This document shows, in pieces, positions 10,110-50,846 of a stretch of DNA of 64,000 nt (position 1 is the first letter of the stretch; every line of letters begins with the position of its first letter). The notes beneath the pieces are model-generated. The model made no database searches. It was not told where the DNA came from and worked only from the letters and a program-made list of their open reading frames with translations. The stretch is from Thermoanaerobaculia bacterium. Lineage in GTDB: Bacteria > Acidobacteriota > Thermoanaerobaculia > Multivoradales > Multivoraceae. The translations under genes were made by a program, and so were the position numbers. The DNA is taken from NCBI GenBank assembly GCA_963664405.1, contig OY761158.1, forward strand, positions 2,816,001-2,880,000, given 5' to 3'.

Positions 10110-10277
10110 CTAGTGGACCGTAACACCCAGACGTTGAGCGCCTGAGCGGCCCTCGCGGCCGATCTCTGCGTTACGCTTCCTCGACATAGTCCCCGATATG
10201 CCTGCGTCAGCGCGCCTTGATCTCGACCACGAATGACTCACTCAGCCACTAAACGTTCGAGTGTTACGGTCCACGAG
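10110..10277 (-). repeat. ~167-bp palindromic intergenic element, copy A
   Basis: Perfect 14-bp inverted repeat GTGGACCGTAACAC (10113-10126 / 10261-10274); the minus-strand core CAAGGCGCGCTGACGCAGGCATATCGGGGACTATGTCGAGGAAGCGTAACGCAG matches copies B and C. Confidence 0.9.
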
Positions 10278-37759: not shown

Positions 37760-38621
37760 GTGAGCTCGACTTGGGAGATCGGCGTGAGAGTGGGCGCCTT
37801 CGCCGTGGTCTTTTCTCTGGTGGCGCTGTGGGAGATTCTCGGCGCGCGCCGTGCGCTCAGCTGCTCCCGCCGCCAACGCTTGGTTCGCCAACCTGGGGTT
37901 GGTGGTCGTGGACACGGTGGTGGTGCGCGTCCTCTTTCCACTCACTCTGGTGGGTGTTGCGATGACGGCCGAGGCACGCGACTGGGGCCTCCTTCGGCAG
38001 CTTTCGGTGCCCTTCCCGGTGACGCTCGGTGTGTCGGTGGTTCTTCTCGACTTCGTCCTCTATCTGCAGCACCTGCTCTTCCACGCCGTGCCGGCACTGT
38101 GGCGCCTCCACATGGTGCACCATGCCGATCTCGACTTCGACCTCACCACCGGCCTCCGCTTCCACCCTGTTGAGATCGCCCTTTCGTTGGCGCTCAAGAT
38201 GGGAGTCGTCCTGCTGCTCGGCGCACCGCCGTTGGCCGCGCTCGTCTTCGAGGCGCTGCTCAACGGCACCGCGCTCTTCAACCACGGCAATGTGTCGTTG
38301 CCGGTCAGGCTCGAAAGGGTGACGAGGTGGTTGTTAGTGACTCCAGACATGCATCGAGTGCATCACTCGGTCGCGCGCCCAGAGACCAACAGCAACTTCG
38401 GCTTCTGTCTGTCGTGGTGGGACCGCCTCCTCGGCACCTATCGACAGAGCCCGAAGTCGGGTCACGACGGCATGCAGATCGGTCTTGACCACCTTCAAGA
38501 TCGCAGCCATCAGTCTCTGCCCTGGCTCCTCGCTCTCCCTCTGCGCGGCGACACAGGCTCTTATCCCTTTGGCTTCGGCAGGAAAAGACGACTCAGGAGA
38601 GGCCGAGGGAGAATAGGCTAG
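37760..38621 (+). pseudogene. sterol desaturase family protein, +1 frameshift at ~37880
   Basis: N-terminus (..ALWEILGARR..RQR) and body (WFANLGL, HLLFH, HMVHH, HRVHH, NSNFG) are in different frames, joined by CGC-T-TGG. Confidence 0.78.
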
Positions 38622-38784
38622 TGTCGTGTCCCGGAAATGCCTGCCTAATAGATCGAGGTCATTTCGTTCGCTGCCAAGGCGCGTCGAGGCAGGCATATTG
38701 AGAAATCTGTCGACGAGGCGTAACGAAGGCAGCGAGCGAAAGGGGCCGAGCTATTGGGTAGGCATTTCCGGGACACGACACTAA
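38618..38784 (+). repeat. ~167-bp palindromic intergenic element, copy B
   Basis: TAGTGTCGTGTCCCGGAAATGCCT is perfectly inverted at the right end; shared core. Confidence 0.92.
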
Positions 38785-49756: not shown

Positions 49757-50643
49757 CTACTCGGCGCCGTCGTAGGGAGGAGGCGCGCTTGGACCGAAGC
49801 CGAGGACGGTGGAGGGTGGCTCCAGGGCCGACGACAGATCCTCGAAGTCGTCGCCCGTGGCTAGAAATAGCTCAGTTTGGTAGCCCGGCTTCGTTGTCCA
49901 GTTGGCGCCCACGATCTTGAGATCGAGCTCAGCGACGAGGGTGAGGAAGTATTTCCAGTCGTAGTACACCGCCTGCGAAGGGTCGCAGTCGTTGACGAAG
50001 ACAGTGTGTTGGTGGGGAGCCAGCACTGGGAACCAGTCGCGGTTGAGGAAGAACCAGGTGGTGCGCAGGAGGCCCGTTTCGCCGATCATCTGCAGGCACT
50101 CACGTAGGTAGAACTCGGTCTGTCGCTGGTAGAGATGAGTGAAGATCGAATGAGCGTTGATCAGTGTGAAGTCCGAACCGTAGCAGTTGATCGCGAGAGT
50201 GTCGCGACGCGTATTCTGCGGTGCATAGGTCGGACTCCAAACATCGTGGTGATCGAAGACCACATCCACCCCGGGCATGCGAAGGTTGGTCCGACACCAA
50301 TCGATCATGCCGGCATGGACGTCAACACCGACGTAACGTTCGGGCGGGACTCGCTGAAGTAGCAGCTGGCGAGCATTGCGGCCGCAGCCGCAGCCGAAGT
50401 CGAAAACCCGTTTGTAGGCCTCCCTGGGTGCGAGGGCCCGATTGCGAGATCTCCCCAGACCGGGTCGCCGGAAGGGTTGTCGAAGACCGCCTTGTCGGTC
50501 GGGCCGACGATCTGCCGGTACTCGAGAGGCGGGAAGGGCAGCTCTCGTGGATCTGCCGCGCCCTCGGCTGGCTCGTGTGCGCTGCCCTTCCCACCAAAAG
50601 CTGCGAGGGCAGCGGCGAGGCTTCGCGGTCGACGTTTCTTCAT
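49757..50643 (-). pseudogene. class I SAM methyltransferase, -1 frameshift at ~50435
   Basis: LPFPPLEYRQIVG..FDNP in one frame, VFDFGCGCGR..SIFTHL in another; one extra C in GGGCCC joins them. Confidence 0.78.
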
Positions 50644-50678
50644 CCTCGCTCCGGCCCCGGGCTCCCGCTTCTTGGGCG

Positions 50679-50846
50679 CTAGAGACCAGCGTTTCCAAAG
50701 TTCGTGTGCAATAGCTCGAGGTCATTCTGTTCGCTGGCCAGGCGCGCCGACGCAGGCATATTGGGCAATATATCGAGGAGGCGCAACGCCGCCAGCGGGC
50801 AGAAGGGGCCGAGATATGTGCGCGAACTTTGGAAACGCTGGTCTAG
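50679..50846 (+). repeat. ~167-bp palindromic intergenic element, copy C
   Basis: Perfect 22-bp inverted repeat AGACCAGCGTTTCCAAAGTTCG (50683-50704 / 50823-50844); shared core. Confidence 0.92.

Follow-up and report, generated by a model that had tools for sequence, protein, structure and literature searches.

Three copies of a mobile element in the window

Self-comparison of the window, by which we mean the whole 64,000-nucleotide stretch of DNA analysed here, recovers three copies of a single short element, designated A (minus strand), B and C (both plus strand). Copy C, a complete MITE (miniature inverted-repeat transposable element) of the subfamily that we term T1, occupies 50680-50845 on the plus strand and runs from TA to TA, with two extra bases after the left TA. 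Its left and right terminal inverted repeats (50680-50709 and 50819-50845) enclose an inner module of about 109 nt (50710-50818), which is common to subfamilies with different ends. The longest reading of a methyltransferase ORF (49757-50725, minus strand) begins within copy C, and its start probably lies further downstream. A fatty-acid hydroxylase ORF (37851-38621) uses the left TAG of copy B (subfamily T3; 38619-38783, plus strand) as its stop codon, and an esterase ORF comes next. Copy A (subfamily T2; about 10111-10276, minus strand) is situated upstream of a Mur ligase ORF, and its 5' TA has decayed. Within the hydroxylase ORF, a separate 60-nt stretch (38382-38443) displays high contig depth in three metagenomes; it could be a further repeat, or else a motif conserved in coding sequence.

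The first-pass annotation of this locus had interpreted the 109-nt stretch as a hairpin under selection on one strand. Selection on a one-strand fold is borne out, and extends beyond the three window copies, but the mobile nature of the element had been missed: the 109-nt stretch is the inner part of a 165-166-bp unit, and B and C diverge over the outer ~27 bp of this unit (10/23 positions identical, versus 24/30 inside, with another T1 copy standing for C). Profile searches of the 6.78-Mb genome returned 298 matches, 246 of them full length, which merge into 285 elements belonging to eight subfamilies (end types T1-T8) with different terminal inverted repeats and one core. The dominant length is 163-166 bp, with TAG..CTA ends and no transposase inside. 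Where both TA ends are present (208 copies), the base just inside the TA is G on the left in all 208 and C on the right in 206. The outer bases vary (left C201/T6/G1, with 7 exceptions; right G195/A11/C2, with 13 exceptions), TTAG/TTAG and CTAA/CTAA never occur, and left and right four-mers departing from CTAG never match each other. This combination of a fixed inner base, a free outer base and unmatched four-mers points to duplication of TA at YTAR rather than to a 4-bp duplication. Furthermore, alleles lacking the element were found for two of the window copies: a contig of run X8 joins 50669 to 50844 without copy C, and in contigs of runs X8 and X9 position 38608 is joined directly to 38777, copy B being missing (depth 2-4 in each case). 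The element is thus a MITE: short, non-coding and multicopy, with terminal inverted repeats, TA duplication, and both filled and empty alleles. It frequently abuts genes, as 131 of 327 adjacent gene 3' ends, called with our own simple gene caller, stop exactly on its TAG.

Comparison of the terminal sequences suggests that the element is likely to be mobilised in trans by IS630-type transposases. The end of copy B is identical at 18/21 positions to that of an IS630 element from another genome (L281), the T8 and T5 ends match an IS630 of this genome (L003) at 13/21, and the best match of the T1 end, to which copy C belongs, is likewise 13/21, with the IS630 end of L263. No autonomous element bearing the core was found in this genome, L003 and L004 being without it; nor was a transposase with ends close to those of T1, the commonest subfamily. 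Nor did 150 genomes of the class yield an autonomous parent with the core or with T1 ends, matches to the T1 end being at control level there. Two T1 copies (L001:1345-4050, that is G000:C1:6758844-6761548, and L002) carry a 2.5-kb insert in the apical loop, and were considered as candidate parents and rejected, the insert consisting of a tyrosine recombinase and an IS91 transposase placed in the apex. This insert is itself enclosed in a short hairpin that resembles attC and has AAC at the junction.

Several other variants and repeats of this genome and its relatives were recorded. L024 and about ten other T1 copies contain a 78-nt insert at CTAG just 5' of AGGC, which starts like the IS1182 end of this genome and contains GCGAAGC-type mini-hairpins; in one of these copies (L229) a multi-gene transposon of 3.4 kb is present as well. 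T1, T2, T4 and T7 copies, despite their different ends, have in common a 13-nt hairpin insert on the 3' arm, which suggests exchange of the core between copies; it also makes the 3' side resemble the GCC-AACG of ERIC. TAG ends are found in an IS1182-family element with seven near-identical copies (G000:C1:403457-405018 and six more sites), as well as in the ISAzo13 and ISNCY elements of this genome. A separate 68-bp tandem repeat family (G000:C1:5821393-5822188 and other sites) is built of TAGC...GAAATGAT...ATCATTTCC palindromes. Elements of 36-53 bp that consist of two ends only, the core being deleted, occur alongside full elements (L254/L258 in genome G146, and L051). Searches of plasmids gave one weak match for copy C, and also a Paracoccus MITE with IS5-type ends and no core.

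A core folding on one strand

The conserved core of copy C (50725-50804, plus strand) is a rod of three helices separated by two internal loops. The outer stem pairs 50725-50738 with 50791-50804 and leads to loop 1 (50740-50788), in which AGGC (50740-50743) lies opposite AACG (50785-50788). The inner stem (50744-50748 with 50780-50784) is followed by loop 2 (50749-50779), with GA (50749-50750) facing GA (50778-50779), a single pair that flips between copies (50751-50777), and GCA (50752-50754) facing GA (50775-50776). The apical stem (50755-50761 with 50768-50774) is capped by a variable loop (50762-50767). As first described, B (38647-38755) and C (50710-50818) align without gaps, with 88 of 109 positions identical, and three pairs of the outer stems (38662-38675/38728-38741 in B; 50725-50738/50791-50804 in C) have changed on both sides; in addition, one T-A pair has become T-G. 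The inner stems, the GA/GA motif and the single pair, which is G-C in B and C-G in A and C, also agree with that description. The plus strand of copy C folds at -51.8 kcal/mol (z -3.97), none of 200 shuffles folding as well, whereas the minus strand reaches -38.7 kcal/mol (z -1.71), with 12 of 200 shuffles as good; the difference between the strands is larger with RNA energies than with DNA energies.

Two earlier statements on loop 1 need qualification. AGGC and AACG, said to be invariant, are so in the three window copies, but across the family they are present in 191/208 and 192/208 copies of canonical length, and subfamily T6 has AGGA, mostly with GACG. They had also been described as unpaired; however, AGGC can contribute its G, and AACG its C, to an invariant G-C pair (59/60 rows), so that loop 1 is not wholly unpaired. 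Besides this pair, loop 1 holds a covarying position, its closing one. Among 143 rows, of which about 80 were fixed at this position by the search pattern, 137 have C·A there, 5 have A·G, 1 has A·A and none has C·G; in T6 it is A·G in 14/16 copies and A·A in 2/16. A switch between C·A and A·G that bypasses C·G points to a defined non-canonical geometry. Seven loop positions are 94-100% invariant in the 143 rows, while the stems turn over. A kink-turn consists of a 3-nt bulge next to tandem G·A/A·G pairs; by inspection of the alignments, neither GA has such a bulge on its 5' side, and this candidate was rejected. The context of the tandem GA and the apical loop were inspected for features that might separate DNA from RNA: the former is mixed and the latter lacks conservation. 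Loop 2 appears mirrored in T8 (L016, L017) and in a Geobacter family, with GCA on the 3' rather than the 5' strand.

Covariation over much larger samples is significant for most of the fold. Against a tree-based null, in which substitutions were reassigned to branches column by column in 25 replicates (a procedure that is not R-scape itself), 15 of 25 pairs are significant in alignment A4 (57 rows) and likewise in A5 (86 rows). Each alignment yields two further significant pairs, and three of these four lengthen the outer helix. Both alignments had been fitted to the model, and the main matches of A5 came from a pattern that fixes most loop bases. In a MAFFT-only alignment of 83 sequences the top 17 covarying pairs all fall on the same helices, and RNAalifold recovered 15 pairs from a 19-row MAFFT alignment, missing the apical stem. 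Paired cells make up 89.2% and 89.5% of two alignments, as against 25-53% when the partners are slid. The strand is also specified: on the motif strand G·T exceeds A·C by 90:13 and 157:17 in two alignments, and by 49:0 in seven subfamily consensuses. Tree-aware covariation, covariation in sequence-only alignments, the excess of G·T over A·C and the covarying non-canonical loop pair together uphold the view that selection acts on one strand. The accompanying suggestion that an internal loop binds a protein is plausible, the ligand being putative.

The core is not confined to this organism. A first covariance model (R1), built from 19 copies of this genome alone, detects the 78-nt core in 38 of the 120 further genomes searched within the phylum, and a second model (R2) in 21 of 100 other Pseudomonadota genomes. 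A pattern scan, whose pattern fixed most loop bases, retrieved at least 80 loci labelled as Pseudomonadota, Myxococcota, Binatia, Planctomycetota, Nitrospirae, Gemmatimonadetes, Omnitrophota, Acidimicrobiales and others. In several Pseudomonadota elements (L364, L356, L358, L359, L363) the core is extended. Rfam gave no match at the gathering threshold in the window, only chance matches with E-values of 3 and 0.3.

Exchangeable ends, fixed spacing and related repeats

Core-bearing elements possess ends resembling those of three transposon families, as typed with NCBIfam, namely IS630 (L109, 19/21), IS1182 (L130, 17/21) and IS5 (L058 and L112, 15/21). Of seven pairs with different ends that were compared, five retain inner arms identical at 23-26/30 positions (19 and 14 in the other two), and new subfamilies appear to arise when the outer ~27 bp are exchanged. 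Counted from the 5' TA to that G of AGGC which is paired, the spacing is 58-61 nt in 47/48 matches with detected TA ends (48 of 146 matches could be measured, within a search range of 15-130 and counting both arms of two-armed elements), and it spans 38 distinct end 12-mers and both one- and two-armed forms. Exceptions come from an unbiased Pseudomonadota set, in which 7/23 loci are at 58-59 and extended cores at 29-53, from Janthinobacterium (about 114, by eye) and from ERIC (about 27). Many relatives are two-armed elements of ~280 bp, in which one end, a core on the plus strand, a core on the minus strand and the other end follow each other; the two cores have diverged from one another and fold on one strand each, ~59 nt from their respective ends.

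Among described repeats, RUP of Streptococcus pneumoniae, an IS630-mobilised MITE, is comparable in being short, non-coding, intergenic and present in high copy, with IS630-like terminal inverted repeats, TA duplication and a long stem-loop (PMC2229807). The present element differs in being GC-rich and in having a covarying one-strand core that spans phyla and is combined with IS630-, IS5- and IS1182-type ends; the account of RUP drawn on here describes no such core. ERIC, or MITEEc1, of enterobacteria is listed with IS630 in ISfinder, according to the relevant part of PMC11602168. It shares with our element the rod shape, the better fold on one strand, and an AAGGY/AACGC loop followed in the same order by a GA-pair-GA motif, but it is 127 bp long, with other arms, the loop about 27 nt from its end and an extra apical stem. 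Length and arms thus rule out that the element is ERIC proper, only the loops being held in common. With filters off, R2 matched 5 of 13 K-12 ERIC loci, and in 40 kb of preselected loci three K-12 ERICs ranked first of 28, on the folding strand (E-values 1.9e-4, 0.005 and 0.057); in a search of the whole chromosome R2 found none, and R1 also gave no ERIC match. Common descent of ERIC and the core is no more than plausible, and one Pseudomonadota element that combines ERIC-like arms with the present core (L364) may bridge the two.

Part of the core family was probably already in print without interpretation. The 'predicted short RNA elements' Gmet_R1001-R1024 of Geobacter metallireducens are 111-116 nt long, and several rows of the published alignment correspond, by eye only, to the reverse complement of the CAAGGC...AACGCAG loop and its flanking stems (PMC2700814, Figure S1); the account in that source presents them as an unexplained BLAST family, without analysis of ends, mobility or structure (PMC2700814). 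CIR of Caulobacter resembles the present family in its two-armed build but has GANTC sites and no terminal repeats; bcr1 of Bacillus cereus resembles it in the compensatory changes within a mobile repeat but has 5-bp direct repeats, both being compared by description (PMC2229807, PMC3184786). The attC sites of integrons are likewise imperfect one-strand hairpins with G:T pairs and purine-rich unpaired parts, and in them G:T pairs and purine skew are selected on one strand of single-stranded DNA (PMC5027507, in the part bearing on this point). Our element has neither the RYYYAAC/GTTRRRY box nor cassette arrays nor an integrase link; AAC faces AGG rather than GTT, and the copies are dispersed, so that identity with attC was rejected and the likeness is one of analogy only. 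Also rejected were REP/REPIN sequences (RAYT-mobilised palindromes of 20-40 nt flanking a RAYT gene), in view of the 165-bp unit, the IS-type ends and the lack of any enriched family among 530 flanking genes. In the open-access full texts searched, we found no account of a core common to several IS families. A precedent for an active interior is the rice MITE in which internal sequence enhances transposition, as reported in the portion of PMC3660474 concerned.

Host context and the probable target of selection

The data do not support the idea that the core serves nearby genes as a cis-regulatory RNA. The folding strand is the sense strand in 77/141 co-oriented gaps, 23/41 tight gaps, 60/132 stop-codon junctions and 60/115 leaders, that is, without orientation bias; T1 alone is sense in 47/76, and the other subfamilies lean the opposite way. 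Unbiased orientation together with the existence of empty-site alleles argues against such a role, and no gene family is associated with it, none being enriched among 530 flanking genes (best p 0.006, uncorrected). A promoter and terminator scan found neither in or beside copy C, and expression in one RNA run amounts to one partial contig from a copy other than C, with none at B. With respect to replication, 118/285 elements of this genome have the motif on the leading-strand sequence (p=0.004, with the origin taken from GC skew) and 106/259 of the isolated copies do, with p 0.075 when a different terminus is used. Four other genomes, with dnaA as origin, give 85/148 (among the 150 matches listed of 389, two from a fifth genome being set aside), an opposite trend with p=0.08, and a replication-strand bias was rejected as a general trait, as it did not recur there. 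Private mutations fall in loops at 14/3566 and in the rest of the core at 111/18466 (p 0.14), and shared variants number 4 in loops and 79 in the rest of the core (private/shared contrast p 0.13), while private stem changes favour G·T by 36:17 (p=0.013). This lean, along with the non-significant loop contrast, leaves room for selection on resident copies or for strand-biased deamination. The mutation and orientation data are compatible with selection on spread.

A fold that is kept on one strand in many bacterial phyla, and next to ends from three transposon families unrelated to each other, is likely to aid the spread of the element rather than the regulation of its neighbours, and we infer that selection acts on that spread and not on host genes. 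The reading we prefer, with a probability of about 0.5, is that of a non-coding MITE, duplicating TA at YTAR and moved in trans by IS630-type transposases, whose core would fold on one strand, likely as single-stranded DNA, and would be read by a putative host protein at a fixed distance from the element end or cut site, thereby promoting transposition or persistence whichever transposase binds the ends. DNA appears favoured over RNA, by odds of about 2:1, mainly because of the fixed distance to the cut site, and also because of the symmetry of one core per end. Several considerations count against the preferred reading. DDE transposases act on duplex ends, so that a single-strand step does not obviously belong to the pathway; RNA motifs typically show loops rich in G·A and a switch between C·A and A·G; and other MITEs bearing the same IS5-type end are without the core. 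The searches that found neither an autonomous core-bearing element nor a transposase with ends near those of T1, the replication-strand bias that did not recur, and the exceptions to the spacing weigh on the same side. A broader version, which we hold tentatively and consider rather doubtful, would have a pan-bacterial module of single-stranded DNA (or RNA), unnamed until now, with two G·A loops of fixed geometry 59 nt from the end, through which a host factor boosts any DDE transposase, and onto which IS630, IS5 and IS1182 ends have repeatedly been grafted, ERIC being a shortened member.

The same constraint could be satisfied if the core worked as RNA on behalf of the element, a read-through transcript binding a protein or forming an R-loop and so promoting transposition or protecting the copy. 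About 7% of cells being G·U, the tandem G·A pairs and the covarying non-canonical pair all have the look of an RNA motif, and RNA energies part the strands the more strongly. Random landing orientation would be expected if only source copies were selected, and two-armed forms would present a core on whichever strand is transcribed. Copy C, however, has no promoter-like site inside or beside it, and DNA accommodates more readily a distance to the cut site that stays the same in three transposase families; we regard the RNA alternative as less likely. A core retained for its effect on the stability or translation of host mRNA, in the way reported for the ERIC of Yersinia, with RNase E, and for Correia elements, with RNase III, would suit the many gene ends that abut the element (131/327), as well as the weak sharing of both loops with ERIC, whose effects on mRNA depend on orientation in the portions of PMC2229807 and PMC10969869 that describe them. 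Against this speak the lack of sense bias in any site class, the empty B and C sites of related populations and the lack of any enriched neighbour family; moreover, host-level selection at scattered, recent insertions would not keep one motif across phyla, which leaves this explanation very improbable.

It is also conceivable, if improbable, that the core has no specific function, template switching at the fold-back having copy-corrected the arms in a manner that mimics compensation, and one-strand deamination (C to T, A to G) having produced the G·T bias. The 36:17 ratio of private stem changes, which sets C>T and A>G against G>A and T>C, accords with this, as do double changes in a few single copies and ends that appear to have been swapped on both arms simultaneously. 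Yet copy correction would erase the loops, seven positions of which are all but constant, and unpaired positions display no asymmetry of C>T over G>A (5/1308 versus 11/3124, on low counts); the spacing and the C·A/A·G switch would also be left unexplained.

The interiors of MITEs are usually taken for decayed filler, whereas here the interior is conserved and the ends are exchangeable, the former persisting across phyla and behind three unrelated transposase families, its spacing fixed and the geometry of its loops defined. Should the core prove to have no measurable effect, this would be a MITE family like any other, apart from an unusually long memory. Otherwise, the defined geometry provides exact mutations for testing how MITEs of bacteria come to outcompete the IS elements that are their parents; it may account for the one-strand rod form of ERIC-type repeats, and could lead to a portable transposition enhancer.
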